From NCBI GenBank assembly GCA_021801905.1, contig JAKABJ010000001.1, positions 1 to 46,614 of the forward strand: DNA of 46,614 bases, in the 5' to 3' direction. This document shows, one piece after another, positions 23,420 to 46,099 of this stretch. Made by a program: the position numbers and the translations under genes. A model generated the notes under the pieces. It was not told where the DNA came from. It made no database searches and saw only the letters and a program-made list of their open reading frames with translations. The stretch comes from Candidatus Micrarchaeota archaeon. GTDB lineage: Archaea > Micrarchaeota > Micrarchaeia > Micrarchaeales > Micrarchaeaceae. Position 1 is the first letter of the stretch; each line of letters starts with the position of its first letter.

Positions 23420-23784
23420 TGAATTCCCTTTTCAGAGACTCTCTTTTCATCACAGATCAGAAATACCTCGTATCATCACAGTTTCATTTGCATTATTGTA
23501 AATTTAGCTGTTTCGTTTCGCTATTTTTTGGCTATAGGAAGCCCATAAAAGTGCATGCTTTTCCTCTGCTTAACTGATTCCGCCATTTTGAGTAAGACCT
23601 GTTTTCATCCCCTTTGCAGCCCTATACAACTGCCTATTTTGGGCCTTGTAGTACCTCCTGTATGCAGCTTTCTTCATGCAGCGCGGCGGCTCTTTTGGAT
23701 GTTAATCGATAAGGTGGTCATGCAAAATGGCAGGTTCAGCTCACTTTGCCAATTTGCATTCTGTTTTACTTTGATTTCAAGTTT

Positions 23785-34323: not shown

Positions 34324-34373
34324 CGCTTACATCAGAACCCTATTGCTCACTTCCGCTAATACGTTTTATCTAA

Positions 34374-34423
34374 GTATTTAAATATATATTTATATAAAAT
34401 ATATTTACTAAAGTAAATGGTGA
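34374..34423 (+). promoter_or_regulatory. Putative promoter (A/T-rich TATA-like run) and Shine-Dalgarno GGTGA for the seven-gene transfer-like operon
   Basis: GTATTTAAATATATATTTATATAAAATATATTTA lies at 34374-34407. GGTGA at 34419-34423 is 4 nt before the GTG start at 34428. Confidence 0.35.
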
Positions 34424-34427
34424 TTCC

Positions 34428-34790
34428 GTGGATGATTTTCTAAAAGGCAAATGTATATTGATACCTGCGCTGCTATTCATATCCCTTGTAAGTTTTGTTA
34501 ATGGCGCGAGTTTGGGTTACAGTTTGCAGATAGTGACTGAATTAGCAAATATAAAAAATATTTTAGGGCAAATAGGCCCGATTTTAAGTGCCGTGATGTT
34601 CATAATTGCGGGAGTCTTCTATGCATTAGGCCAAATGATGCCACCTGATAAGAAAGCTAATTTCCACAGCACTGCAGTAAACATCATAATTGGCGCGATT
34701 GTTGTGGGTGTCCTGAGCGTTGCTGCCACCTCTTTTGCAACAGCTTCTACGCATTTGCTTAGCAACATGACTTTGAATTCCTCACAGTAG
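34428..34790 (+). CDS. Secreted/membrane small protein: signal peptide plus two hydrophobic helices (VirB2/TrbC/CedA1-like pilin candidate)
   Basis: GTG start preceded by GGTGA. It has an N-terminal signal-like segment (KGKCILIPALLFISLVSFVNGA|S). This is followed by helix IGPILSAVMFIIAGVFYALGQM, a short basic loop PPDKKANFH, and helix AVNIIIGAIVVGVLSVAATSFA. Confidence 0.6.
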   Translation: MDDFLKGKCILIPALLFISLVSFVNGASLGYSLQIVTELANIKNILGQIGPILSAVMFIIAGVFYALGQMMPPDKKANFHSTAVNIIIGAIVVGVLSVAATSFATASTHLLSNMTLNSSQ

Positions 34791-34797
34791 TGATAGA

Positions 34798-35829
34798 TTG
34801 ATAGGCTACGAGATTGCAGTTAGCACAGTAGCAATTATGATAAGTATTGGGGGAATTGTGCTTGGGATAGGGTACGGGATTGATGATCGGCGCTTGAAGT
34901 CCTTTGGCAAGGATGAGCTTCTTCAATCATTTATAAATGCAATCATAATTGGGGCATTGTTTACTTTTTTCAGCCCTAATGGATTAGGCATATCTTTGGT
35001 AAATAGCGTCGTGCAATCTTCAAACATAGAGGCATCCTGCTCTGGGTTTATGAGTGACAACTATGCAATTTGCTTTGCTGATAATTACCTTGTGGGAGTG
35101 CAGCCAGTAGGGATTGGAGGCGCAAGATATCCTTCATTGCTTGATGCATCTTTTACATTGCTGGCCCCATTGACTGGCAGTTATTTGCTTTTAGGGGTAA
35201 TATCCGCAACAGAATTGAACCTTGGTTTTGCGTCTTTCTCCTTTTCAAGCATATTGTCACCAGTTATGTCAGAAGAGAGTTTTATAATAAAGCTGATAAC
35301 GTTCGGAATAATTGACCTCTATACTCAGTCTGCGCTGCTTAGCGTGGTCTCTCTTGTTGCCATCCCCTTACTTCTGCCCGTAGGAATAGTTTTGCGCACA
35401 TTTTATCTGACTAGAAAAATAGGCGGCACGATAATAGCAATCGCAATAGGCCTTTTTGCAGTATACCCTCTTACTTATTTGCTAGATGCGCAGATAACTG
35501 CCAATTATTCTACAAGTTTGGGGGCAAATGCATTCACGGCATTTAACTTAAACTCCCAATCAATACAGGAACAAATCTTATCTGCTGGAAGCAGCAGTAT
35601 TTCAACAAATTCGATAACTAATTTTGGAAGCGGACTTCTCTCAAGTTTGACAAATGTTGCTAGTTCTTTCACAGATGTGCTGCGGCAAGTTATGGCAGCA
35701 GTATCTGTGTTGATAATAGAGGTATTCTTCTTCCCTTTGTTCAGCTTGATTATAACCATAGTTTCAATTAGGGAATTGGCTACTGCTCTGGGATCCGAGG
35801 TATCTTTTGGGAAATTTGACATATTCTAG
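34798..35829 (+). CDS. Polytopic integral membrane protein, at least 6 TM (VirB6/TrbL/CedA-like candidate)
   Basis: TTG start 3 nt after GTGAT and 7 nt after the previous stop. 343 aa with hydrophobic helices throughout, a Cys-containing extracytoplasmic loop (EASCSGFMSDNYAICF) and an S/T/N-rich loop (STSLGANAFTAFNLNSQ...SSSISTNS). Confidence 0.6.
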   Translation: MIGYEIAVSTVAIMISIGGIVLGIGYGIDDRRLKSFGKDELLQSFINAIIIGALFTFFSPNGLGISLVNSVVQSSNIEASCSGFMSDNYAICFADNYLVGVQPVGIGGARYPSLLDASFTLLAPLTGSYLLLGVISATELNLGFASFSFSSILSPVMSEESFIIKLITFGIIDLYTQSALLSVVSLVAIPLLLPVGIVLRTFYLTRKIGGTIIAIAIGLFAVYPLTYLLDAQITANYSTSLGANAFTAFNLNSQSIQEQILSAGSSSISTNSITNFGSGLLSSLTNVASSFTDVLRQVMAAVSVLIIEVFFFPLFSLIITIVSIRELATALGSEVSFGKFDIF

Positions 35830-35836
35830 GGGTTTT

Positions 35837-36568
35837 ATGGAGAATTTTATTGTGTATATAATTGCCGGCGCATGCTGCATCGCTGCGATAGCTAGCATTA
35901 TTACATTTAACCCTTACCTTATAGCAATTACTCCTTTGCTAGGGATTCTGTTTTTGATATTATTCAAAGGTTGGAACATTATAGAGGCATTGCTATTCAA
36001 ACACACACATATAATTCAGATGTTTGATGGCTTTGAACTAAGCGGGAGTAGGCTAACGGCTGTCGCAAGAGAAGGAGGGATTTACACATCAGTCTCTGCT
36101 GCGGAGCTTGTGCCTACCTCAAATTCCGAAATCGACAGGGATAAATTGGAGAGATTAATCAGGAATTTTGGCTTCCCTTTCCGATTAAGCACTTATGTGA
36201 AGAGATTCAAAACCGACAAGATAATAGAGAAGCTGCAGGTAAGGAGAAAAATGAAGGAGATTGAATTATCCAGGATACATAACCAAAAATCCGGTACAGG
36301 AATGCTTAAAGCTGCAAGGCTAAAGGAGGAAATATCTTGCCTAAACCATGAGCTCTCCCAGATACAGGGTGGCGGAGTTCCGCTTGAAATGAGATATTAT
36401 GTTGTAACCGCTTCGAGCGCGAACTTGAAATATAAGGCGGATGAGGAGGCGCTATCTAACTTAAAAGAAGTGCTCTCTGGTTTGAATGCAATTTTAGGCA
36501 CAGAATCGGCAATACTAAGCGGCCCTGAATTAATAAAAATGATAAAATTTGATTACGTGATGCAATGA
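35837..36568 (+). CDS. Membrane-anchored protein: two N-terminal TM helices plus cytosolic domain with coiled coil (VirB3 + VirB4 N-terminal domain-like candidate)
   Basis: I start it at the ATG at 35837 (MENFIVYIIAG...), 4 nt after AGGGG and 7 nt after the previous stop; the ORF-track start at 35807 overlaps the previous gene. Its end overlaps the ATPase gene start (ATGA). Confidence 0.6.
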   Translation: MENFIVYIIAGACCIAAIASIITFNPYLIAITPLLGILFLILFKGWNIIEALLFKHTHIIQMFDGFELSGSRLTAVAREGGIYTSVSAAELVPTSNSEIDRDKLERLIRNFGFPFRLSTYVKRFKTDKIIEKLQVRRKMKEIELSRIHNQKSGTGMLKAARLKEEISCLNHELSQIQGGGVPLEMRYYVVTASSANLKYKADEEALSNLKEVLSGLNAILGTESAILSGPELIKMIKFDYVMQ

Positions 36569-37656
36569 TATCAAATTCTATAAACGCGGCAAGGCTATTG
36601 GATGTGTTTATGGGGAGCGAACCTGCTCCAAAAAATAATGATATTGTTGAAGGGATATATGTGGGAAAAACTTTGGCATATAACCTGCCGTTTTTCCTTA
36701 ATAGCAGCAGATTGATAAACCCCCACATATCTATTGTCGGAATGACAGGATCTGGAAAGAGTTACCTGCTAAAGAGCATGATAATGCGCTTGTACATCAG
36801 CAATAATGTGAATATTCTAATAATTGACTGGTCGTCCGAATATTCTCAGCTAGTAAAGGATCTTGGCGGAATTGTAAGAAGCGCCAGAGGCAATGCAGAT
36901 ATTCCTGTAGAGCACCTGCCTGAAGGTATTTTGTCCATAGATTTATCAGAGATAAGAGATCCTTCAATTGCAGGCTGCACAGCTAGAAATGCACTTTTAG
37001 AAGTATCTAAATCCATGTCTCGTTCTAAGTTAAATGAAAAAGTGCGTTGGGTTATTGTTATAGATGAGGCTTGGAAATTGGCGGATTATGAAAAAGTGTT
37101 AGGAAGGCTTTTTAGAGAAGGGAGAAAGTTTGGGTTTTCTATCATAGTGGCAACGCAATTGATAAAGGATGTAAATAATGAGATTTTGGCTAATGCGGCT
37201 TGCTGTTTTGTTTTTCGTTTGATGGGATCGGAAAATTTTGATGCGCTTTCATCTTCAGGTTTGCTAAAGCACAATGATATAGAGACTGTAAAATCTTTGA
37301 ACCGAGGGACATGCATGGTGTCTTTGCACACTAGAAAAGATATTGAGAAAAATTTTGCCGTTAGAATAGATGGTTTTTCCTTTAAGTCGTATCTACTATC
37401 ATACTCGGGTGTAAAAATGAAGGTGTCATTGGAAAGCATATCTAATGCGATATCTAAAATGGAGATCTGCACCGAAGACCGGTTAAAGCTCTTTAGGTTC
37501 TTTGATGATGCAGGGCAGTCTTTGGACCTAATCCAGGTAATCGGCGCGATGATGGAAATTGGAATAAAAAGAGTTGAAATGATATCATTTTTCTCCGAGC
37601 TTGGAGTAGATGAAACTTCTGTTGCAATATCAATAGAATCAATAAAAAAGGTGTGA
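36565..37656 (+). CDS. P-loop ATPase of the VirB4/TraC/CedB/HerA-FtsK class
   Basis: It has Walker A (SIVGMTGSGKSYLLKS), Walker B (WVIVIDEAWKL) and a downstream REGRKFGFSIIVATQ motif typical of VirB4/HerA/FtsK-like ATPases. A C-terminal extension of about 90 aa has unknown function. GTGAT lies 4 nt upstream of the ATG. Confidence 0.8.
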   Translation: MISNSINAARLLDVFMGSEPAPKNNDIVEGIYVGKTLAYNLPFFLNSSRLINPHISIVGMTGSGKSYLLKSMIMRLYISNNVNILIIDWSSEYSQLVKDLGGIVRSARGNADIPVEHLPEGILSIDLSEIRDPSIAGCTARNALLEVSKSMSRSKLNEKVRWVIVIDEAWKLADYEKVLGRLFREGRKFGFSIIVATQLIKDVNNEILANAACCFVFRLMGSENFDALSSSGLLKHNDIETVKSLNRGTCMVSLHTRKDIEKNFAVRIDGFSFKSYLLSYSGVKMKVSLESISNAISKMEICTEDRLKLFRFFDDAGQSLDLIQVIGAMMEIGIKRVEMISFFSELGVDETSVAISIESIKKV

Positions 37657-37662
37657 ATTTTA

Positions 37663-38292
37663 ATGGATAATACTGGCAAACTTTTTATATCGTCTTTTGT
37701 AATAAAAGGGATATTAAAATCAGATTTGAAAGAGCTTTCTTCTTTTATGGAGTCATTTGAAGGTATGAAGCCAATTAGCCATGGCTCTAAACTGTCCTAT
37801 AGTGTAAAGAGTAATCAAGATGCAGAAAGCACGATAGTTTTGGAACTGCATACGGATAAGGTAGCTTACAATTTCAGTTACAATAGCTATTCGATAATTA
37901 AAAATATTTTGCATATGGCAAATTTTTTGATTTTTGTGCAGGCAGTTGATAATAAATATAATTTCAATTATGTGGATTTATTGCCACAAATAATAGATTT
38001 ATTAAAAAATTGCAACATTTCTTCAACACGCCCTGCAGATGATTTATTTATAGAAAGGCTATCTAATTTTATAAAAAGATTGAATTTAGCCAATATAAAA
38101 TTATCCAGAAATCTTTACAATTCAAGGCTAGAAATCATGTCTTTAAACGACTCGTTAAAAACTTATAGGGAATTCTACAGAGAGATATACCATAATTTGA
38201 CCAAAAAAGGAGGGGTTGCTGAAAAAGATTTCGCAAGATGGCTGGGAGTAGATGAAAACATTATTAAAAGATTAAACAACGGGATAAAATGA
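37663..38292 (+). CDS. Hypothetical soluble protein (209 aa) with C-terminal HTH-like segment
   Basis: It begins 6 nt after the ATPase stop, with AGGTG upstream. The C-terminus GVAEKDFARWLGVDENIIKRLNNG resembles a helix-turn-helix. The region is visibly more A+T-rich than the upstream genes. Confidence 0.5.
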   Translation: MDNTGKLFISSFVIKGILKSDLKELSSFMESFEGMKPISHGSKLSYSVKSNQDAESTIVLELHTDKVAYNFSYNSYSIIKNILHMANFLIFVQAVDNKYNFNYVDLLPQIIDLLKNCNISSTRPADDLFIERLSNFIKRLNLANIKLSRNLYNSRLEIMSLNDSLKTYREFYREIYHNLTKKGGVAEKDFARWLGVDENIIKRLNNGIK

Positions 38293-38981
38293 GTGACAGT
38301 TTAAGAGCAGATTTGATTGCCTTTTCCCTTGTCTTATCATTTTTACTTTCTATTGTATTTATTTTTGTTTCGTTAAATTTTGCTTATTTGTTTTTTGGGG
38401 GAAGCGTTTGTATTTCTTTGATATTAGCAACAGAATTGACATATAACAAAAAAACTTTAGAGATTAAAGATGAAAGATATATTCTCAAGAATCATATAAC
38501 AAAGCCGCATGAGATTATTAGTAAGGAATTTCTACGTGTTTTAAATAACAAAGGCTGTTCCAGCATATCTAATTCGATAAAAAACATCCAGAAAGAGTCA
38601 GGAATAGCTGATTTTTGGTCTATAAAAGAAGAATTCGAGTACTGCCTAGAAAAAAATTATGACGCGGATTTGATAATTTATGGCGATGTTGTTTTCCGTG
38701 GGAATTGTTTAAGAAAAGTTTTTGATTATTTTAAATATAATTTATGGATAAATGAAGGTGGCGATGCAGATTTTAATGGAAAATTAAATAAAAAGCACAT
38801 CATTTACGGGGAACGGATAACTAAAAATATGCAGTGCTTTGCTGCCTTATCCGCATGGCAGAATTTCCTTTGGCAGTGGAGCATAAACAACATTGACATT
38901 CAAAGGTTTCCAAAAGGGGATTTTAGTATTAATTTAACAGAAGGTGACTTTCTTTGTTACAAATACTTGAAAAATTATTAA
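38289..38981 (+). CDS. Hypothetical membrane-anchored protein (230 aa; N-terminal TM hairpin plus Cys/Trp-rich soluble domain)
   Basis: ATGA overlap with the previous gene. The N-terminus is LIAFSLVLSFLLSIVFIFVSLNFAYLFFGGSVCISLILA, followed by a soluble domain of about 175 aa. I recognise no motif. Confidence 0.5.
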   Translation: MSDSLRADLIAFSLVLSFLLSIVFIFVSLNFAYLFFGGSVCISLILATELTYNKKTLEIKDERYILKNHITKPHEIISKEFLRVLNNKGCSSISNSIKNIQKESGIADFWSIKEEFEYCLEKNYDADLIIYGDVVFRGNCLRKVFDYFKYNLWINEGGDADFNGKLNKKHIIYGERITKNMQCFAALSAWQNFLWQWSINNIDIQRFPKGDFSINLTEGDFLCYKYLKNY

Positions 38982-39019
38982 GGCTCACCTCTCTAAGCGG
39001 ACTTATAGTAATCAATTCT

Positions 39020-39157
39020 ATGGCATTTCTCATCATACTTATTTCGACAATTAGAGGCCAGCCAATGAATATACGAAAATATCTTATGGCTTCATTCCTG
39101 CTGCTGTTATTTATTGAAGCACTCCATATATTGGCATATTCAAATGTATTGATTTGA
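39020..39157 (+). CDS. Possible small two-helix membrane protein (45 aa)
   Basis: MAFLIILISTIRGQPMNIRKYLMASFLLLLFIEALHILAYSNVLI has two hydrophobic segments split by a basic loop. The ORF-track version (38954) overlaps the previous gene. Support is weak, resting only on position in the operon and hydrophobicity. Confidence 0.3.
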   Translation: MAFLIILISTIRGQPMNIRKYLMASFLLLLFIEALHILAYSNVLI

Positions 39158-39269
39158 TTTTATTCTATTTTGTGCGTAGCTCACTCCAATAGAATTATGG
39201 CATTTCCCATCCATTAACCAATATTTCTGGCATATTTCTTATGTTACCAAAATTATTCTATTTATTTTA

Positions 39270-39611
39270 TTAGCAACAATGTAATAAAGTCGGAGCTCCT
39301 CTCAAAAGCCATGCGGTCTCTTCATTTCTATCATGTCTTTTCCTCTTCGTTAATTCATTATCTGCAATTTTTTGGCTGTCTTCTTTACTATATTTTCGTA
39401 TCAATTTTAGCTGATAATCGGTCATCTTTGCGGCACTCCTGGAATTAATTCCTTTTGATTCCAAAGTTCTTAGAAGCCTAGCATCTTCCTTTCTGGTTAT
39501 AAAGGTTAAAGATATAGCTGATATGTCTGGTTTCGCTCTGTTTAGTACGAGTGCTTCGCTTTTGATATTAAAAGCTGTCTGGTATTTTTTATCTTCCATA
39601 TATGTCACCAC
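39270..39611 (-). CDS. Hypothetical protein, possible ribbon-helix-helix DNA-binding fold
   Basis: 113 aa, divergent from cydA. The segment ISLTFITRKEDARLLRTLESKGINSRSAAKMTDYQLKLI fits a beta-strand/helix/helix RHH pattern, and the C-terminal tail is basic. The start may be Met5. Confidence 0.4.
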   Translation of the reverse strand: MVTYMEDKKYQTAFNIKSEALVLNRAKPDISAISLTFITRKEDARLLRTLESKGINSRSAAKMTDYQLKLIRKYSKEDSQKIADNELTKRKRHDRNEETAWLLRGAPTLLHCC

Positions 39612-39670
39612 ATAATAAGCGTATATTATTTCTATTAATGATATATATAACTTCTTTATGATTTATTCTT

Positions 39671-40999
39671 ATGCTTTCGGTATTGGATTTCGATAGGTTC
39701 TTGATGGGTTTTTCCCTTGGCGTGCATATCATACTGGCTTCGATAGGGATTGCGCTTCCTGTAATAATAATTCTGGCTGAATTTTTAGGGATAAGAAAAA
39801 AGGATAAAATATACACGACTTTGGCAAAAAGGCTTTCTCTGATTCTTATTGTACTTTTTGCAGTAGGAACTGCTTCTGGAACCCTTGTAGCGCTTGAACT
39901 TTTCCTTTTGTGGCCCAAATTCATGGCCTTGGTAGGCCAAGTTGCAATACTGCCGGTATATATAGAGGTATTTGCTTTCTTTTTGGAGGCGATTTTCCTT
40001 GCTATTTATATGTTATCTTGGGATTCATTTGATAATAAATACGTGCATGTTTTTTTCGGGGTACTTGTAGGAATTGGAGGGGCTGCGTCTGCAATTCTTA
40101 TAACAATGCTAAATTCGTTTATGAATACACCTAATGGATTTAACATTTCTACATATTTAAGTACAGGACGCATAGTTGGTGTAAACCCTCTTGCAATATT
40201 CTCTACGCCAGCAACAGGAATAGAAGTAAGCCATGTGTTAGCAACTAGCTATTTTGCAGGTGCATTCATATTCTGTGCTTACATGGCATACAGGTTACTG
40301 AAATGCGACCCAAAGTATAAAGAGTATTATATGAAAGGATTAAAGATCACTTTCTCTTTAGTTGTAATAGCGACATTTTTCTCTGTTGTTACAGGCATTA
40401 TATCGATAAATTCTTTGGCAAGCATACAACCTGAAAAATATGCAGCTTTAGAAGCCAATCTGTTCACAAGATCAAACGCATCCGAGATCATAGGTGGAAT
40501 TTTAATTAACGGCACACTTAGAGACTATTTTTCAATACCAGGATTACAGAGCGCTCTGCTCGGCTCATCGAACGCCGTTGCTCCAGGTTTAAATGAATTT
40601 CCAAAAAGTACTTGGCCGCCTTTAATAGTTCATGATACTTTTGATTTAATGGTCTTTCTGGGCTTTGGCTTTGGTTTGTTTGTATTGATCGTTTTGGTAT
40701 TGCAATTAATTAGGAAAAAACCATTTGAAAAAAGATGGATACTTTACCTTATAGTGATTGCTGGTGGTGTTGCGGTCCTTCTGCTTGAACTTGGATGGAT
40801 GACGGCAGAAGTGGGGCGGCAACCATGGATAATATACAACGTAATGCTTGTAAGCGAAGCGGCCAATTACTCAACTTCGATAATACCTATTGTAATAGGA
40901 TTGATAGTAGTTTACGCACTTATACTGCCAATTACTGCAATAATGCTTAAGATGCTCTTCCGTGATAGAGAATTATCCAAAGAATTAGGGATTCCATGA
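39671..40999 (+). CDS. cydA: Cytochrome bd-type quinol oxidase subunit I
   Basis: 442 aa. It has the N-terminal heme-ligand His context (SLGVHIILAS) and the conserved GWMTAEVGRQPW motif, with multiple TM helices. Confidence 0.92.
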   Translation: MLSVLDFDRFLMGFSLGVHIILASIGIALPVIIILAEFLGIRKKDKIYTTLAKRLSLILIVLFAVGTASGTLVALELFLLWPKFMALVGQVAILPVYIEVFAFFLEAIFLAIYMLSWDSFDNKYVHVFFGVLVGIGGAASAILITMLNSFMNTPNGFNISTYLSTGRIVGVNPLAIFSTPATGIEVSHVLATSYFAGAFIFCAYMAYRLLKCDPKYKEYYMKGLKITFSLVVIATFFSVVTGIISINSLASIQPEKYAALEANLFTRSNASEIIGGILINGTLRDYFSIPGLQSALLGSSNAVAPGLNEFPKSTWPPLIVHDTFDLMVFLGFGFGLFVLIVLVLQLIRKKPFEKRWILYLIVIAGGVAVLLLELGWMTAEVGRQPWIIYNVMLVSEAANYSTSIIPIVIGLIVVYALILPITAIMLKMLFRDRELSKELGIP

Positions 41000-41925
41000 A
41001 TGCCTTATACATATTCAATATATCGATATTTGCAGTCTTCTTTACACTCTTCACGATAGAGGTAGGAATAGCTTTGCAGATTCTTTTAGGGAATAATAAG
41101 ATTGCGGAAATGATAAGGTATATAACACCCATATGGGAGATAACCGGTACGTTTGCAGTTTTTTTTGTTATGAACTTTATTGCTACTTTTCCTTCAGCAA
41201 TAGCTATTATAGGAACTGCATACGTTGCCCCTCTCCTTATAGCGGCATTATTTTTTATTTTTAGGAATGCTTTCCTTGCATACGGAATTTATTACAAAGG
41301 ATCATCTAGCAGGGTTTATTTGAAGGTCTATGGATTGGCAACCTTGATAACGGGATTTCTTGTTATAAGTGTACTTTCTTCTGCGATAAGCGGTTTCGGG
41401 ATAAATTTGGGAACCGATAGCATAAACTTATTCACTTTATTTGTCAATCCATTTTTCCTTATTATTCTTGTTTCCGTAATTTTCATATCTTTAATGCTAA
41501 ATTCTGTAATTTTTCACACAGATAAGGAGCCCGTATATTTCTTGATTGGGATTATAGGGATTATAATGGCATTGCTTGATATGCATTATTATCTTAACTA
41601 TGCTTTTATCAATTTATTGCAAGGAGTTCCTTTACTTTTATTAGTAATAATCGTATTTCCAGTGAGGATGGCGTCTGCAATAAAAAGAAGTGCCATATCC
41701 ATGATAGTGCCTTTTGTCTGGATGTTCTTGATAATTATCCTATTTAGTTATGCAACATATCCGTACTGGTTTGGAAAAGAAATAAACGCGACATCATATT
41801 TATCTCTGACAGCTACTGGCACATATGTATCGTATATAACCATTATTGGCGGGGCTCTTCTTACCATAGCTCTTATATATTTTGTTTATATTTCTTATTT
41901 TAAGTCCAAAAAGGCATATTCATGA
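40996..41925 (+). CDS. cydB: Cytochrome bd-type quinol oxidase subunit II
   Basis: 309 aa, polytopic, with a 4-nt overlap with cydA. Position and topology are as for CydB, but the sequence is divergent. Confidence 0.75.
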   Translation: MNALYIFNISIFAVFFTLFTIEVGIALQILLGNNKIAEMIRYITPIWEITGTFAVFFVMNFIATFPSAIAIIGTAYVAPLLIAALFFIFRNAFLAYGIYYKGSSSRVYLKVYGLATLITGFLVISVLSSAISGFGINLGTDSINLFTLFVNPFFLIILVSVIFISLMLNSVIFHTDKEPVYFLIGIIGIIMALLDMHYYLNYAFINLLQGVPLLLLVIIVFPVRMASAIKRSAISMIVPFVWMFLIIILFSYATYPYWFGKEINATSYLSLTATGTYVSYITIIGGALLTIALIYFVYISYFKSKKAYS

Positions 41926-42578
41926 CGAGTTTTATCATTCTGAAGCTTTCGACCATAATAATATTCTTGCTAACTCTTCCATTGGCTGCATTCTTAACCC
42001 AATCTTTCTTCAAAAGCAAAGTTAAAAGTTATTTGTATTGGAGCATTGGGATGTGGTTTTTTTCATTAAGCGTGTTTATCGAAATTTTATTTGCATTTGG
42101 AGCATATAGTGGATTTTTAGGGAATAGTTATATGCTATTTGTTGCATTGATTGTCGAATTTTTGGCATTGGGTTCCATCAATATGGTAAAAAGGCTGCTA
42201 ATAAGAAAAACATATTACATATTTTGCGTTATATCAACTATTTTTCTGATTTATGTAATAATCATATCTCCGAATATACCGATAGTTAATAATGCAAGAA
42301 TAGCTTTTACAGTTACATCTTTGCTTGTTTCTATAGCTTCCAGCATAATAACTTTTCCTGCAGCTGCAATATTGGTAATAGTTGCGGCTTTGAGCTATAA
42401 ACGCACAAGAAATGTAAAAATGCTTTCGATAATAGCAGGGGTGATTGTAGTTTCAATTGCGGGAGGATTATATATAGAAGCCATACCTGCTTTTCTTTAT
42501 TATTCTGAATTCATAGGGATAGTACTTCTTTGGTTGGGCTTCTTCAATTTTGATAAGGTTAAACGAATTGTAAGATAA
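41922..42578 (+). CDS. Hypothetical 6-TM membrane protein translationally coupled to cydAB
   Basis: 218 aa with an ATGA overlap with cydB. It is entirely hydrophobic helices and I recognise no motif. Confidence 0.5.
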   Translation: MTSFIILKLSTIIIFLLTLPLAAFLTQSFFKSKVKSYLYWSIGMWFFSLSVFIEILFAFGAYSGFLGNSYMLFVALIVEFLALGSINMVKRLLIRKTYYIFCVISTIFLIYVIIISPNIPIVNNARIAFTVTSLLVSIASSIITFPAAAILVIVAALSYKRTRNVKMLSIIAGVIVVSIAGGLYIEAIPAFLYYSEFIGIVLLWLGFFNFDKVKRIVR

Positions 42579-43248
42579 ATAATAAAATAAAAACAGCTAT
42601 TGGAACAGTAAGGTTGTCATAACTACTTGGAGTGAAAAACTCAATTATGGATGCAAATACTCCTGCAATTATTAGTAGAACGTAAGGGTAGATTGCAGCT
42701 CCTTGGAAAAAGATTACATAAATAATAAAAGAACTGATTAGGGTGCCGATAAAGACCCCAAAAGCCCCCTCTATGCTCTTATTGCCTGACTTTTTATTTT
42801 TTCTCATGCTCCCTAAAAAGGGTGCAATCCCATCTCCGAATACCATTGCGCAAAGGGCCACAACGCCTGGCAGGGATTTGAAGCCTATTGCGGTTATGAG
42901 AATGAAGATGAAGAAAAAGAAAAGAGGTCCTTTTACAGCTTCCCTTATGTTGCCAGTCCAAGTAAGCCTTGCTACATTCTTTTTATGCGATCCTTTTCCT
43001 AAATTTGCAAAGACTATTATTGCAATAAAAATAAGCGGCACTATAGAAAAAAATACTTCTGCGTATGCGGATTTATAAAGAAACCAGAAAAGTATAAGTC
43101 CACCCATTAGCAGATGAACTAGCTTCCTTCCAGTTCTTCTACTAAGTTTGTTGTTTTTTACAAGATAATCTATAATCACAACAATTAGTAGTGAGTATAT
43201 TATCTCCAATAAAAGTATAAACATATTATATATCAGCTGTGCATTCAT
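42559..43248 (-). CDS. Dolichol/phytol kinase - CTP-transferase family membrane protein
   Basis: 229 aa. It has the GRKLVHLLMGG motif (as in dolichol/phytol kinases) and FGDGIAPFLG (cytidylyltransferase-family GD motif), with about 6 TM helices. Confidence 0.6.
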   Translation of the reverse strand: MNAQLIYNMFILLLEIIYSLLIVVIIDYLVKNNKLSRRTGRKLVHLLMGGLILFWFLYKSAYAEVFFSIVPLIFIAIIVFANLGKGSHKKNVARLTWTGNIREAVKGPLFFFFIFILITAIGFKSLPGVVALCAMVFGDGIAPFLGSMRKNKKSGNKSIEGAFGVFIGTLISSFIIYVIFFQGAAIYPYVLLIIAGVFASIIEFFTPSSYDNLTVPIAVFILLFILQFV

Positions 43249-43261
43249 TTTGGCGCCCTAA

Positions 43262-43783
43262 TTATTTCACACCAATATGTTCAAGCACAGAATTGATATT
43301 GTCTTCAATAGCATTTGTGCTTTTAAATGAGATTATATTTCCATCTATTTCTACGTCTTTTTCGCTTGCAATGCCATGAAAAAGTTCCACGGTTCTTTGG
43401 GTTTCTTTGTCAGCAGGCACTGCAACCTTTTTTCCCCTCAGTATATTCGCTTTTGCAGATATCTTTTGGGAGTTTCCTATAGAAATTATATATTTGTGCA
43501 TTGAATTGAATTTTGTCAGGATATCAAAAAAAGGCCTGAATTCCTGCAACTTGTACGTATCAATTCCAGGCCCGTCAATAAGCACAATTCCATTATATTT
43601 GGATGGATCAATCTTGTTTGTATTAATATCGGGCATATATATTGCTCCATGAGAGCCTATGCATTCTTTTGTGCTGTAGCTGGTGATAGTTGCTTTTATT
43701 CCCCATCTTTCAAAAAACATTTTGAATGCGCTTACAGATTCGTCCTTAAAATCATTAGGAGATATAAATATGAGGAATTCCAT
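43262..43783 (-). CDS. DJ-1/PfpI-like domain protein lacking the nucleophile Cys
   Basis: 173 aa. The overall pattern is right (YNGIVLIDGPG ... GKKVAV ... DGNIISF), but the nucleophile-elbow position reads ISIGNS instead of aaIChG. Confidence 0.5.
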   Translation of the reverse strand: MEFLIFISPNDFKDESVSAFKMFFERWGIKATITSYSTKECIGSHGAIYMPDINTNKIDPSKYNGIVLIDGPGIDTYKLQEFRPFFDILTKFNSMHKYIISIGNSQKISAKANILRGKKVAVPADKETQRTVELFHGIASEKDVEIDGNIISFKSTNAIEDNINSVLEHIGVK

Positions 43784-43840
43784 AATAATATGTATCCATA
43801 ATAAGCTTAAAAAACCTTCGCAGCTAAAGATAGCGGATTC

Positions 43841-44587
43841 TTAGTTTTCAAGCATATATGGAGCAAGATAATACGAGAGAGATGCTTCCCCTATCTTATA
43901 ATCGATTTTTATTGGTTCCTCTGTTTTTATTGACAACTGGACTGTATTGCCTTGCGGGCATGTCCTGACTATTCTATCAAGATATTCAAGATTGAATGTT
44001 ACTGATGATGGCTTTGTTACGTTCATCTTTTTAACAAAGTCGGTGTTGCCAGCATGTTCCTCTTCCAGCTCAGCAGCATCCCCTTTGGCAGATATTTTGA
44101 AATTGTCTTTCTCGGTTTTAAACCCTATAAGATTCGATAATGAAGTTGCGTCTTTAAGCACTTCCTTAAAAGGATCGCTTTTGAGTTCTACCTGAGATTC
44201 AAATTCTATCTTTGGTTCCTTATCTGCCTCTTTCTTGACTTCTATCATTGGCAGTTTATATCTTCTTCTGCTGTTTTCACCTATAAACTCTATAGCAAAC
44301 TTATTTCCGGAGTCTTTCATGGATAGCTGTTCGTTGTTTCTTGCGCTTGATAGGATTTTGTTGAAGTTCTCTATGCTTACTCCGACTATAGCCTGCTTAT
44401 CAATCTCGTACTTGGAAAATGCTTTATTAGGTATATAAAAAGAGACCATGCTTATGCCTGAGGGGTCCATTGCTTTAAGAGAGATTCCTTCCTTTGATAT
44501 ATTAAATATGCCTTCATCGACTAAGGTCGCTATCGAACCTATGCAATCTCTCCAATACCTAGCATCGTCTATTTTTATTTCGAACAC
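43841..44587 (-). CDS. pcn: DNA polymerase sliding clamp PCNA
   Basis: (M)FEIKIDDARYWRDCIGSIATLVDEGIFNISKEGISLKAMDPSGISMV aligns with archaeal PCNA N-termini. I place the start at the GTG at 44587, giving 248 aa. The ORF-track TTG (44656) or ATG (44638) would add a non-homologous hydrophobic extension. Confidence 0.88.
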   Translation of the reverse strand: MFEIKIDDARYWRDCIGSIATLVDEGIFNISKEGISLKAMDPSGISMVSFYIPNKAFSKYEIDKQAIVGVSIENFNKILSSARNNEQLSMKDSGNKFAIEFIGENSRRRYKLPMIEVKKEADKEPKIEFESQVELKSDPFKEVLKDATSLSNLIGFKTEKDNFKISAKGDAAELEEEHAGNTDFVKKMNVTKPSSVTFNLEYLDRIVRTCPQGNTVQLSIKTEEPIKIDYKIGEASLSYYLAPYMLEN

Positions 44588-44719
44588 AGAACCACGCAGT
44601 AACTGTATATCTATTCTCTCATAAAGGAATAAAAACATTTGTAATGCACATGTCAATATTAAAACAGTATGTGTTTATTTTATTTATTATATTTTGCAAT
44701 CGTATGAAAAAATGTAAAC

Positions 44720-46099
44720 TTAAATCTCATTTTTTGGATCAAGCAGCCTGTCCAATGTTTTTTTGTCAAGAACGCCCATTTCAAGGCAAACCTCTTTTAC
44801 TGTTTTATCGCTCTTATAAGCCATTCTGGCTATCTCTGCTGCTTTGGCATAACCTATATGGCGTGTCAATGCGGTTACTATTGAGATGTCATTATCAAGA
44901 TTCTTTTTGATTATGCTGCGGTTCGCCTTTATCCCATCTATGCATTTTTTAGTGAATATATTAACCCCATTTGAGAATAAGTCAATAGATAGGAGAAGAT
45001 CGTGCGCTATTAAAGGCATGTATACATTTAATTGAAGCTGTCCTGAATCTGCAGCTTTGTCTATCGAATACGAATATCCGAATATCTGGAAGCACACCAT
45101 GTTCATCATCTCTGCAGCGCTGGGATTTATCTTTCCAGGCATTATAGAAGACCCTGGAAGAAGCTCTGGGAGGCTCAGTTCGCCCATCCTGCCTCCTAAA
45201 CTTGATGAGAGAAGGCGCAGATCGTTTGCAATCTTGTTTATTGTTATTGCACATTCTTTAAGAGAATCGGAAAGGAATACTTCATCCTGCTGGTTTGGCA
45301 TCATCTTGAATTTGTTGCTAGTGATAAAGAATCGTGTTTTTAACTCTTTGTTTATCTCTAATGCCGCAGTTTCAGCATATCCTTTGGACGCATTTATGCC
45401 TGTGCCTACAGCGGTTCCGCCTAATGGTATTTCTAGCAATAGATCCGTTGCGTGCCTTATGTTCTCAGCAGCTTTTGCAACAGCTCCGGAATATCCTTTG
45501 AACTCTTGACCCATGCTAATTGGCACAGCATTCTGAAGGTGGGTTCTTCCCACTTTTATTATGTCTTCAAATTCCTGAGCTTTTTTATCCAGAGTCCTGT
45601 TAAGATCTTTTAATGCAGGGAGAAGCTTGTTCCTAACAGATATGTATGAGGCTATATGAACCGCAGTGTGGTATGTATCGTTTGTGGACTGGCTCATGTT
45701 AACATGATCGTTTGGATTAACCAGGTTGTAATCCCCTTTATTTCCGTTAAGAAGCTCAATTGCCCTGTTTGCTATTACTTCATTAAGGTTCATGTTTAGA
45801 TTTGTGCCTGCGCCAGCCTGAAAGACATCTATATTGAACTGATCTGAGAACTTCCCGCTTGCTACCTCTTTGGATGCTTTCATTATAGCTTTGCCGATTT
45901 TTGGGTTAAGTTTTCCTATTGAAATATTTGCATGGGCGGCAGCGTATTTAAGAATTGCATATGCATATATCATTGTCTTGTTTGTCTTGATGCCAGATGC
46001 ATTAAAATTTTCTAAGGCTCTTTGTGTCTCTAATCCATAATAAGCATCTTCAGGGACTTTTGCGCTTCCTAAAACATCCTTTTCTATTCTGAATTTCAT
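44720..46099 (-). CDS. fumC: Class II fumarate hydratase / aspartate ammonia-lyase family (fumarase favoured by context)
   Basis: 459 aa. It has the GSSIMPGKINP signature, TNDTYHTA and GAGTNLNMNLNEVIANRA. It lies 2 nt downstream of sdhB and among TCA genes, but the AGAGT motif leaves aspartase possible. Confidence 0.8.
   Translation of the reverse strand: MKFRIEKDVLGSAKVPEDAYYGLETQRALENFNASGIKTNKTMIYAYAILKYAAAHANISIGKLNPKIGKAIMKASKEVASGKFSDQFNIDVFQAGAGTNLNMNLNEVIANRAIELLNGNKGDYNLVNPNDHVNMSQSTNDTYHTAVHIASYISVRNKLLPALKDLNRTLDKKAQEFEDIIKVGRTHLQNAVPISMGQEFKGYSGAVAKAAENIRHATDLLLEIPLGGTAVGTGINASKGYAETAALEINKELKTRFFITSNKFKMMPNQQDEVFLSDSLKECAITINKIANDLRLLSSSLGGRMGELSLPELLPGSSIMPGKINPSAAEMMNMVCFQIFGYSYSIDKAADSGQLQLNVYMPLIAHDLLLSIDLFSNGVNIFTKKCIDGIKANRSIIKKNLDNDISIVTALTRHIGYAKAAEIARMAYKSDKTVKEVCLEMGVLDKKTLDRLLDPKNEI

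Follow-up and report, generated by a model that had tools for sequence, protein, structure and literature searches.

Two crenarchaeal systems, Ced of the Sulfolobales and Desulfurococcales and Ted of the Thermoproteales, are to our knowledge the only domesticated conjugation machines described so far in archaea. Both are type IV secretion systems (T4SSs) that were domesticated and import DNA (PMC9905601, PMC11868833). The components of one have no recognizable sequence similarity to those of the other (PMC9905601), which sets a precedent for the degree of divergence found in the locus described here. That locus is a seven-gene cassette (open reading frames ORF1 to ORF7) of Candidatus Micrarchaeota archaeon, located in a 46,614-nt stretch of DNA (GCA_021801905.1, contig JAKABJ010000001.1, positions 1-46,614, forward strand) that is called the window throughout. 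The organism belongs to the Micrarchaeota (DPANN), in line with the small-genome archaeal lineage suspected in a preliminary description of the window; the National Center for Biotechnology Information (NCBI) files the phylum as Microcaldota and the kingdom as Nanobdellati. In that description the cassette was read as a conjugation-type apparatus of the Ced/Ted kind, divergent and encoded by the host among housekeeping genes, and the pilin, the ATPase, the fold of ORF3 and the genomic setting all agree with this. It is very likely that the cassette encodes a pilus or translocation machine derived from a T4SS, and likely that it represents a third archaeal lineage beside Ced and Ted. Full-text literature searches turned up no account of such a cassette, whether T4SS-, Ced- or Ted-like, from Micrarchaeota; genome papers on cultured Micrarchaeota mention type IV pili only and speculate about DNA exchange (PMC5498576).

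The features of the cassette, with the basis of each assignment, are as follows.

34372-34423, + strand: promoter and leader region, upstream of ORF1
34428-34790, + strand: ORF1, predicted VirB2/TrbC-type T4SS pilin precursor, 120 amino acids, GTG start (Pfam T4SS_pilin)
34798-35829, + strand: ORF2, polytopic membrane protein, 343 amino acids, TTG start (topology and gene position)
35837-36568, + strand: ORF3, protein with two transmembrane (TM) helices and a cytosolic alpha/beta domain, 243 amino acids, ATG start (structural model and Foldseek)
36565-37656, + strand: ORF4, P-loop ATPase of the HerA/VirB4/CedB branch, 363 amino acids (Pfam, NCBIfam and hhalign)
37663-38292, + strand: ORF5, cytoplasmic protein with a weak C-terminal helix-turn-helix (HTH) signal, 209 amino acids (profile matches)
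38289-38981, + strand: ORF6, fast-evolving membrane-anchored protein, 230 amino acids (position and hhalign)
38954-39157, + strand: ORF7, small protein with two TM helices, 67 amino acids, TTG start (position and hhalign)

The lengths, start codons and tight packing of the seven genes are as first described. Three junctions have gaps of 7, 7 and 6 nt, and two have ATGA overlaps (36565-36568 between ORF3 and ORF4, and 38289-38292 between ORF5 and ORF6). ORF6 and ORF7 overlap by 28 nt. This junction had gone unmentioned, and it fits neither of the two types first described, gaps of up to 7 nt and ATGA overlaps. A TTG at 35807 is an alternative start that would extend ORF3 to 253 amino acids, but gene callers and the alignment of homologs favour 35837. 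ORF7 was not called by the gene callers in the source assembly. Motifs resembling GGTG or GTGA precede the starts, as had been noted for the ribosome-binding sites, and hydropathy bears out the topology proposed for the first three products: a signal peptide and two helices in ORF1, about five to six TM helices in ORF2 and two N-terminal TM helices in ORF3. Additionally, ORF6 has an N-terminal TM helix and ORF7 has two TM helices.

Comparison with Described Systems

Several traits link the cassette to Ced (CedA, CedA1, CedA2 and CedB, with CedD and CedE). Both are chromosomal, host-encoded and without a relaxase, and both combine a small two-helix pilin and a polytopic membrane protein with a HerA-clade ATPase and a module resembling the N-terminal domain (NTD) of VirB4. 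CedB is the top curated model for ORF4 and the commonest match for the ORF3 family, ORF7 is comparable to CedA2 as a small accessory with two TM helices, and most Micrarchaeota cassettes have two paralogous ATPases, as Ced has in CedB and CedD. However, ORF4 scores 80.6 bits against a curated cut-off of 700 for CedB (NF041017), and the TM and NTD module that is fused in Ced is carried by the separate ORF3. A Sec signal peptide that would be cleaved is predicted for ORF1, in contrast to CedA1, which is reported to be unprocessed (PMC9905601). The cassette also differs from Ced in having all of its genes in one operon, in its phylum (DPANN) and in its accessories ORF5 and ORF6.

Ted (TedC, TedA and TedB), which was compared by description, is likewise a domesticated chromosomal T4SS with a polytopic VirB6-like protein, a VirB4-like ATPase and a pilin cleaved by signal peptidase I, as would also apply to ORF1. 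TedB is a VirB4 homolog encoded by a single gene (PMC9905601, PMC11868833), whereas its equivalent in the cassette appears to be split in two. ParA/VirC1-like, Rad50 and HerA-like genes occur near Ted loci (PMC9905601), whereas none occurs in the window. Bacterial conjugative T4SSs, especially the minimal type of monoderms (MPF-FATA/FA), share with the cassette a VirB2-family pilin, homology to the C-terminal domain (CTD) of VirB4, a fold match of ORF3 to VirB4 and a VirB6-VirB3-VirB4-like gene order, which is the order found in monoderm T4SSs (PMC12857230). The Patescibacteria, which are also ultrasmall episymbionts, have a phylum-wide chromosomal T4SS without a relaxase (PMC12102498). In contrast to bacterial T4SSs, VirD4, relaxase, VirB1, VirB8 and VirB11 were not recognized in the cassette, VirB4 appears split between NTD and CTD, the ATPase domain resembles HerA-like proteins more closely than it does proteobacterial VirB4, and the VirB6 candidate is not recognizably homologous. 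The catalytic domains of HerA-like DUF87 ATPases are clearly homologous to ORF4, but ORF4 lacks the N-terminal HerA region, has no NurA or defence partner in the window and always stands in an operon with pilin and membrane-protein genes. The cassette resembles Ced and Ted, and by the curated criteria tested it is a member of neither.

Conservation of the Cassette in Micrarchaeota

A scan for the ORF2 family in one genome per GTDB species gave 88 matching stretches, of which 80 loci were kept. Among them is a complete chromosome of 1.2 Mb, and nearly all carry the label Candidatus Micrarchaeota, Micrarchaeia or Micrarchaeaceae. When profile searches for the cassette genes were run over 90 loci, ORF2, ORF3 and ORF4 were matched in 89, ORF1 in 84 and ORF5, following the ATPase gene, in 80. 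Order and orientation were the same throughout. The preliminary description had called for a survey of related genomes for a syntenic cluster, and in practically all of about 80 species genomes ORF1 to ORF5 proved to be collinear, an arrangement far beyond chance. ORF6 and ORF7 diverge quickly; they are kept by position and, more weakly, by sequence. Relatives of the window ATPase at 76%, 48% and 41% identity each have the same six called genes around them, and their cassettes sit between tricarboxylic acid (TCA) cycle/taw1 genes and a cydAB/PCNA/fumarase block. More distant relatives have the cassette beside a tRNA synthetase gene and KsgA or directly after the SUF operon, and it was seen in at least three different housekeeping neighbourhoods.

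A few loci are labelled 'Marsarchaeota' and one is labelled as bacterial, and identical sequences occur under both archaeal labels, which points to inconsistent labelling or mis-binning. L005, with an ATPase named Marsarchaeota by NCBI, and L011, from a metagenome-assembled genome (MAG) of Micrarchaeota, have identical profile scores for all six cassette genes. The bacterial label belongs to L021, a contig of a MAG labelled Candidatus Acidoferrum that carries an archaeal cassette with ORF2 at 60% identity, which suggests mis-binning. Two contigs of MAG MAS3.bin106 (L051 and L072) each carry a full nine-gene cassette, through paralogy or a mixed bin. In an Anstonellaceae genome (L009:7151-10173) there is a trio of genes for an ORF3-like protein, the ATPase and an ORF5-like protein with a clear C-terminal winged-helix-like sequence, and neither a pilin gene nor an ORF2 gene adjoins it; the system of this genome appears to be dispersed or reduced.

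ORF1 and ORF2

ORF1 scored 30.2 bits against the Pfam family T4SS_pilin (PF18895), above the gathering cut-off of 26.6, and 22.6 bits (E 1.3e-4) against TrbC/VirB2, just below the cut-off of that family. The signal recurs across the ORF1 family, in which T4SS_pilin was matched by 49 of 78 members and TrbC by 38 of 78. By hhalign, the similarity to a profile of 10 proteobacterial VirB2 sequences was weak but specific, with E 0.0018 across 68 columns compared to 0.4-0.75 for cross-controls. The signal peptide is of the Sec type, with predicted cleavage near VNG/AS at about residues 26-28, and the two hydrophobic helices are connected by the loop PPDKKANFH (PPDK(K/R)AxFH in the family). Invariant residues include G50, P51 and N113, the last of which lies in a C-terminal N-x-T sequon. 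These family matches place ORF1 among the predicted VirB2/TrbC-type pilins, as had been guessed from its two helices; there was no match to a Ced pilin in NCBIfam.

ORF2 is the best-conserved protein of the cassette, with 117 homologs at 29-85% identity, all of them unannotated. It has an invariant cysteine pair (C81/C92) in a predicted extracytoplasmic domain and an invariant VLRTFYxTRKLGG loop. Its AlphaFold2 model (predicted local distance difference test, pLDDT, 79.6; predicted template modelling score, pTM, 0.70) contains unusually long helices. ORF2 had no match in Pfam, NCBIfam, PHROG or PADLOC, and Pfam was also blank for all 72 family members. Nothing was found by a profile search of PDB sequences or by a Foldseek search of the model against the PDB.

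ORF3 and ORF4 as a Split VirB4-like ATPase

The structure of ORF3 was modelled with AlphaFold2 on a 95-sequence alignment. The model (pLDDT 93.8, pTM 0.76) has a TM hairpin of VirB3-like topology at its N-terminus, then an amphipathic helix and an alpha/beta domain that includes a long helical hairpin. When it was compared with the PDB using Foldseek, each of the top 11 matches was a TrwK/VirB4 chain from R388, with probabilities of 0.96-1.00, E values of 4e-3 to 9e-2 and 155-173 columns aligned; the next matches had probabilities of 0.41 or less. Because ORF3 has no P-loop and ORF4 covers the C-terminal domain, the part that is matched by the cytosolic domain of the ORF3 model is most probably the VirB4 NTD. 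The 95 members of the ORF3 family gave weak NCBIfam matches to CedB (9 members, best 3.4e-4), VirB4_plasma (2) and TraC (1). The window ORF3 itself had no match in any sequence library scanned, including Pfam, NCBIfam and PHROG. Together, the VirB4-only fold match and the weak family matches favour the earlier guess that ORF3 is VirB3-VirB4-like. An exhaustive search of a library of 1.84 billion proteins returned 124 cluster representatives of ORF3, nearly all of 200-280 amino acids with some shorter fragments, and none of the 124 was fused to an ATPase.

ORF4 matched DUF87 (3e-18), AAA_10 and P-loop_TraG in Pfam. In NCBIfam the best model was CedB, followed by TraC, VirB4_plasma and CedD. At the family level the CedB model was matched by 59 of 59 members (best 1.7e-32), followed by the VirB4-like CD1110, CedD, VirB4_plasma and TraC, and the HerA repair and antiphage models ranked below the CedB and VirB4-type models. 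As with CedB, the VirB4 score of ORF4 is far below the curated cut-off (31.5 compared to 643 bits), and the relation to CedB is one of family and not of equivalog. Alignment of ORF4 with a 10-sequence VirB4 profile by hhalign (98.6%, E 1e-15) placed columns 14-336 on VirB4 388-798, which suggests that ORF4 corresponds to the VirB4 CTD and starts at the boundary between NTD and CTD. Additionally, ORF4 residues 20-92 align with positions 243-315 of the CedB model; the CedB positions N-terminal to this match number about 220, which comes close to the length of ORF3 (243 amino acids). ORF3 and ORF4 together look like a VirB3-VirB4 (or CedB) protein split at a domain boundary, and the split is common to every locus and family member examined.

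The ATPase motifs picked out in the preliminary description (GMTGSGKS, VIVIDEAW and REGRKFGFSIIVATQ) are all present, and 59 homologs show no variation in the key residues of Walker A, Walker B and the arginine finger. ORF4 consists of the catalytic domain and a conserved C-terminal extension of about 95 amino acids, for which nothing was found among PDB sequences. The N-terminal region of about 130 residues of HerA-like proteins is absent, with Walker A near residue 63 in ORF4 compared to about 147. A long form of the ATPase (about 440-490 amino acids), with an insertion of about 80-130 amino acids soon after Walker A, occurs in many lineages (L010:8001-9329; L009:8001-9479); the window ATPase is of the short form.

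ORF5 to ORF7 and Additional Genes of the Relatives

The ORF5 profiles of the window's clade and of other clades align at 99.9% by hhalign. In the protein, an N-terminal domain is accompanied by a coiled-coil region, and there is a weak signal for a (winged) HTH at the C-terminus. The family profile matched a DeoR-type HTH in the PDB (E 0.005), and about 15 of 72 members matched assorted HTH families of Pfam (best 4.5e-5). From these matches ORF5 is a candidate DNA-binding component or regulator. In 68 loci ORF5 is followed by a protein of 142-339 amino acids, usually with an N-terminal TM helix, at the position of ORF6. The ORF6 profiles of the window's clade and of other clades align at 98.8% by hhalign (E 8e-6 for the window protein), and no family was matched in Pfam, NCBIfam or PHROG; the Cys-containing domain of ORF6 is probably external and would be exposed at the surface. 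At the position of ORF7, about 43 loci have a protein of about 47-70 amino acids, mostly with two TM helices. ORF7 is 54% identical in the nearest relative and aligns between clades at 53.8% by hhalign (E 1.3e-4), it had no match in NCBIfam, and its size and topology recall CedA2 and VirB3.

In most relatives the cassette continues past ORF7 with a protein of about 85-100 amino acids and three TM helices (O8) and an ATPase of about 730-760 amino acids (O9), for example at L010:10767-11060 and L010:11051-13267, and also in L017, L019, L022, L024 and about 45 more. This second ATPase was found by tblastn in 50 loci and is homologous to ORF4 (98.5%), VirB4 (92.6%) and HerA-like proteins (98.7%); it is weakly CedD/CedB-like and not clearly VirD4. 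Its N-terminus was compared with ORF3, and the result was negative. In the window and its clade both genes are absent at the locus, and no copy was found elsewhere in the window. The earlier term 'minimal' apparatus therefore fits the window's clade but not most of its relatives, in which the protein with three TM helices and the ATPase of about 740 amino acids are added. The minimal form is either a derived state of the window's clade or the result of these genes being located elsewhere in the genome.

Promoter Region

The layout upstream of the pilin gene is shared across the phylum and consists of a B recognition element (BRE)/TATA-like aAAgnTTTAAATA, palindromic boxes resembling TACTTAAGTA, often in two copies with a spacing of 19-20 bp, and a GGTG ribosome-binding site. 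In the window, the BRE/TATA-like TTTAAATA lies at 34377-34384. It is followed by a degenerate first box and by the second box TTTACTAAAGTAAA (34404-34417) of the palindromic TACTTAAGTA-like element, and by the Shine-Dalgarno GGTGA of ORF1 at 34419-34423. Of 77 loci, 61 have TTTAAATAT, with one mismatch or less, ahead of the pilin gene. The TACTTAAGTA-like element (two mismatches or less) occurred in 76 of 77 loci compared to a mean of 22 in shuffles, and strict pairs of boxes 19-20 bp apart were found in 18 loci where 0.37 were expected. This architecture is kept although the flanking genes differ, and it travels with the cassette. The TTTAAATA may serve as TATA box and the palindromic boxes as operator. 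Their conservation suggests that transcription is regulated, and ORF5 is a candidate for the regulator that acts at the palindromic boxes.

Chromosomal Context

The window consists of core chromosome throughout. It contains genes for ribosomal proteins S12, S7 and L7Ae, aEF-2, RpoK, SMC and SUF, for isocitrate dehydrogenase, aconitase, malate dehydrogenase, citrate synthase, fumarase and succinate dehydrogenase, and for Taw1, cytochrome bd and PCNA. Pfam annotation of the whole 46.6-kb window revealed no integrase, transposase, relaxase or replication gene and no recognizable VirD4 coupling protein. The absence of relaxase, coupling protein and integrase from the window excludes self-mobilization. 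Repeats flanking the cassette (att) were found only at chance level, and the sole tRNA of the window, at 23784, is 10.5 kb from the cassette. No relatives of ORF2 were found in 2.9 million IMG/VR contigs or in 72,556 plasmids (PLSDB), and the ATPase had only P-loop-level matches on plasmid and phage records (27% identity, E 3e-4 for phage). G+C (GC) content falls from about 0.41 to 0.31-0.37 across window positions 37000-45000, and to 0.31-0.35 within the cassette. Because the fall starts inside the cassette and persists through cydAB, it marks neither the edges of the cassette nor an island. There is strong support for the cassette being a vertically inherited chromosomal system of the host and not a mobile element, which is also how it had been judged before: it is conserved vertically, lies in core chromosome, has no att repeats and its ORF2 has no viral or plasmid relatives.

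The cassette is flanked as first described, by taw1 (Radical_SAM and Wyosine_form) upstream and cydAB downstream, with one ORF of 113 amino acids between cassette and cydAB on the - strand (39270-39611). No family matched this ORF, and its conservation is limited to the nearest relative (54% identity). Relatives have genes for a Rieske protein and an aldo/keto reductase between cassette and cydAB (L003:12589-13818) that are absent at window 39158-39670, which suggests a local deletion or rearrangement. A polytopic ORF of 218 amino acids at 41922-42578 overlaps the stop codon of cydB. ORFs of similar size without a Pfam match follow cydB in L003 and L005, and the 218-amino-acid ORF may be an accessory subunit of cytochrome bd.

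Alternative Explanations

Because T4SS genes are usually on mobile elements, the cassette could be the decayed remnant of an integrated conjugative plasmid or integrative and conjugative element, and the GC content of 0.31-0.34 over ORF5-ORF7 and the one MAG with two copies would fit such an origin. However, a remnant would not be expected at the same site, between taw1/TCA-cycle genes and cydAB, in relatives with ATPases only 41-48% identical, nor in collinear order in about 80 species, and the low GC content runs on into cydAB. The preliminary description had raised the case of an integrated plasmid with relaxase and integrase in the wider context, and neither gene is in the window, where replication gene, transposase and flanking repeats are also lacking, the nearest tRNA is distant and no relatives are on plasmid or viral records. 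Descent from such an element by decay is therefore very improbable. It is hardly credible that the cassette is a provirus or a virus-derived module of an FtsK/HerA-type packaging ATPase with virion membrane proteins. PHROG matches, at 6e-23 to a family without an assigned function and at 7e-16 to a 'terminase large subunit' family, together with remote tblastn matches to phage FtsK-like genes, do point in that direction, but there are no capsid, portal or integrase genes, the phage matches stay at the P-loop level, IMG/VR holds no ORF2 relatives and strict vertical conservation across a phylum is unlike the behaviour of a provirus.

Several results weigh against descent of the cassette from a T4SS. 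The Foldseek E values of ORF3 are modest (4e-3 at best) with a TM-score of about 0.37 over the whole query and with the aligned VirB4 residues unreported, and ORF3 was negative by sequence profile against both VirB4 and VirB3 (9 sequences). The hhalign comparison of ORF2 was negative against R388 TrwI alone and gave 0.1% against 9 VirB6 sequences (proteobacterial), and alignment of ORF1 with ORF2 gave 0.2%, so that homology between pilin and channel of the CedA/CedA1 type was not detected. The VirB6-like nature suggested for ORF2 thus stands on size (343 amino acids compared to 342 for TrwI), topology and position, and it failed in every homology test; from these three features and the gene order, we infer a channel or platform in the position of VirB6 or CedA. 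Position and topology are the criterion used in the field for such divergent T4SS proteins (PMC12857230), and it took sensitive profile-profile methods to link TedA to CedA and VirB6 (PMC9905601). The window also lacks the second ATPase, which means that the system of its clade may be incomplete or work differently. Finally, ORF4 is nearer to HerA-like proteins than to VirB4: a PDB profile search gave 5e-23 to 1e-21 for HerA-like chains compared to 2e-15 for the VirB4 domain 4ag5, and hhalign gave E 7e-39 for HerA-like DUF87/HerA_C proteins, stronger than for proteobacterial VirB4, in a comparison biased by a HerA-like set drawn from the query's own distant hits and a VirB4 set that was proteobacterial only. 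The VirB4-class ATPase that had been claimed thus holds with respect to the best model (CedB) and the alignment to the VirB4 CTD but not to the nearest proteins, and the catalytic domain appears to lie on the HerA/CedB side of a HerA-VirB4 continuum, a position also reported for CedB and CedD (PMC11868833). These comparisons and the PADLOC matches of the ATPase to HerA/mad8 would be expected if ORF4 were a HerA-type helicase, of HerA-NurA repair or anti-phage defence, with unrelated membrane neighbours. However, the other six cassette proteins had no PADLOC family match, NurA, Mre11, Rad50 and other defence partners are absent from the window, the HerA N-terminal region is missing and the HerA models of NCBIfam score under the CedB and VirB4-type models. 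Moreover, the gene invariably adjoins that of a membrane protein with a VirB4 fold, with a T4SS pilin gene two genes upstream, and a helicase of this kind is highly improbable. The remaining alternative accepts the T4SS-derived machine and gives it the job of a host-contact device, either an attachment pilus or a conduit for protein, lipid or metabolites to the Thermoplasmatales host. Micrarchaeota depend on their host (PMC8975820, PMC5498576), the relaxase-less chromosomal T4SS of Patescibacteria is needed for epibiotic growth and is phylum-wide like the cassette (PMC12102498), the window has no relaxase or coupling protein, and the fast evolution of ORF6 is expected of a surface protein facing a partner cell. 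It is a serious alternative but nevertheless an unlikely one, given the DNA-binding-type HTH signal of ORF5, the action of the nearest characterized ATPase relatives, CedB and CedD, in DNA import (PMC11868833) and the extensive gene exchange reported between a Micrarchaeon and its host, which fits DNA traffic (PMC5498576).

Proposed Mechanism and Significance

In the T4SS-derived machine that we favour, Sec would export ORF1, signal peptidase I would cleave it, and the resulting two-helix VirB2-type pilin would be kept in the membrane. ORF2 would form a membrane platform or channel. ORF4 would assemble into a cytoplasmic ATPase ring tethered to the membrane through ORF3, which would supply in trans the two-TM anchor and VirB4-N-terminal-like domain that VirB3-VirB4, CedB and CedD have in cis; the ATGA overlap would couple the translation of ORF3 and ORF4. 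Hydrolysis of ATP would then drive the extraction of pilin and growth of a pilus, or push a substrate through the channel, or both. ORF5, with its coiled coil and HTH, may bind DNA as a substrate adaptor or as a regulator at the palindromic boxes of the promoter, and ORF6 and ORF7 would be envelope accessories. The job of the system is most likely contact-dependent transfer between cells, in the form of Ced/Ted-like import or exchange of chromosomal DNA or of traffic with the Thermoplasmatales host. DNA import or exchange is the most economical of these because the nearest characterized ATPases act in it and ORF5 has a DNA-binding-type motif, and DNA is proposed as the substrate only tentatively.

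A third, very divergent lineage that is kept throughout a DPANN phylum would mean that domesticated conjugation machines have a wider distribution and a greater age in Archaea. The cassette would also provide a natural example of a VirB4 split at its domain boundary and a new, strongly conserved family of membrane proteins (ORF2). For the Micrarchaeota, it is a concrete candidate for the exchange of DNA or other material, among themselves or with their Thermoplasmatales hosts, and the existence of Micrarchaeota-host co-cultures makes studies of expression, imaging of pili and purification of pilin feasible. A broader and more doubtful suggestion is that the cassette is a T4SS nanomachine of the Micrarchaeota core genome, with a split VirB4 and a channel family not seen before, that acts as a conduit to hosts and is the DPANN counterpart of the essential T4SS of Patescibacteria. 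If this is true, two radiations of ultrasmall episymbionts would have independently kept a conjugation-type pilus as their physical link with hosts, carrying DNA and possibly other macromolecules. The heavy gene exchange between symbiont and host would then be explained, as would the pilus-like connections between cells that have been seen in acid-mine-drainage communities.

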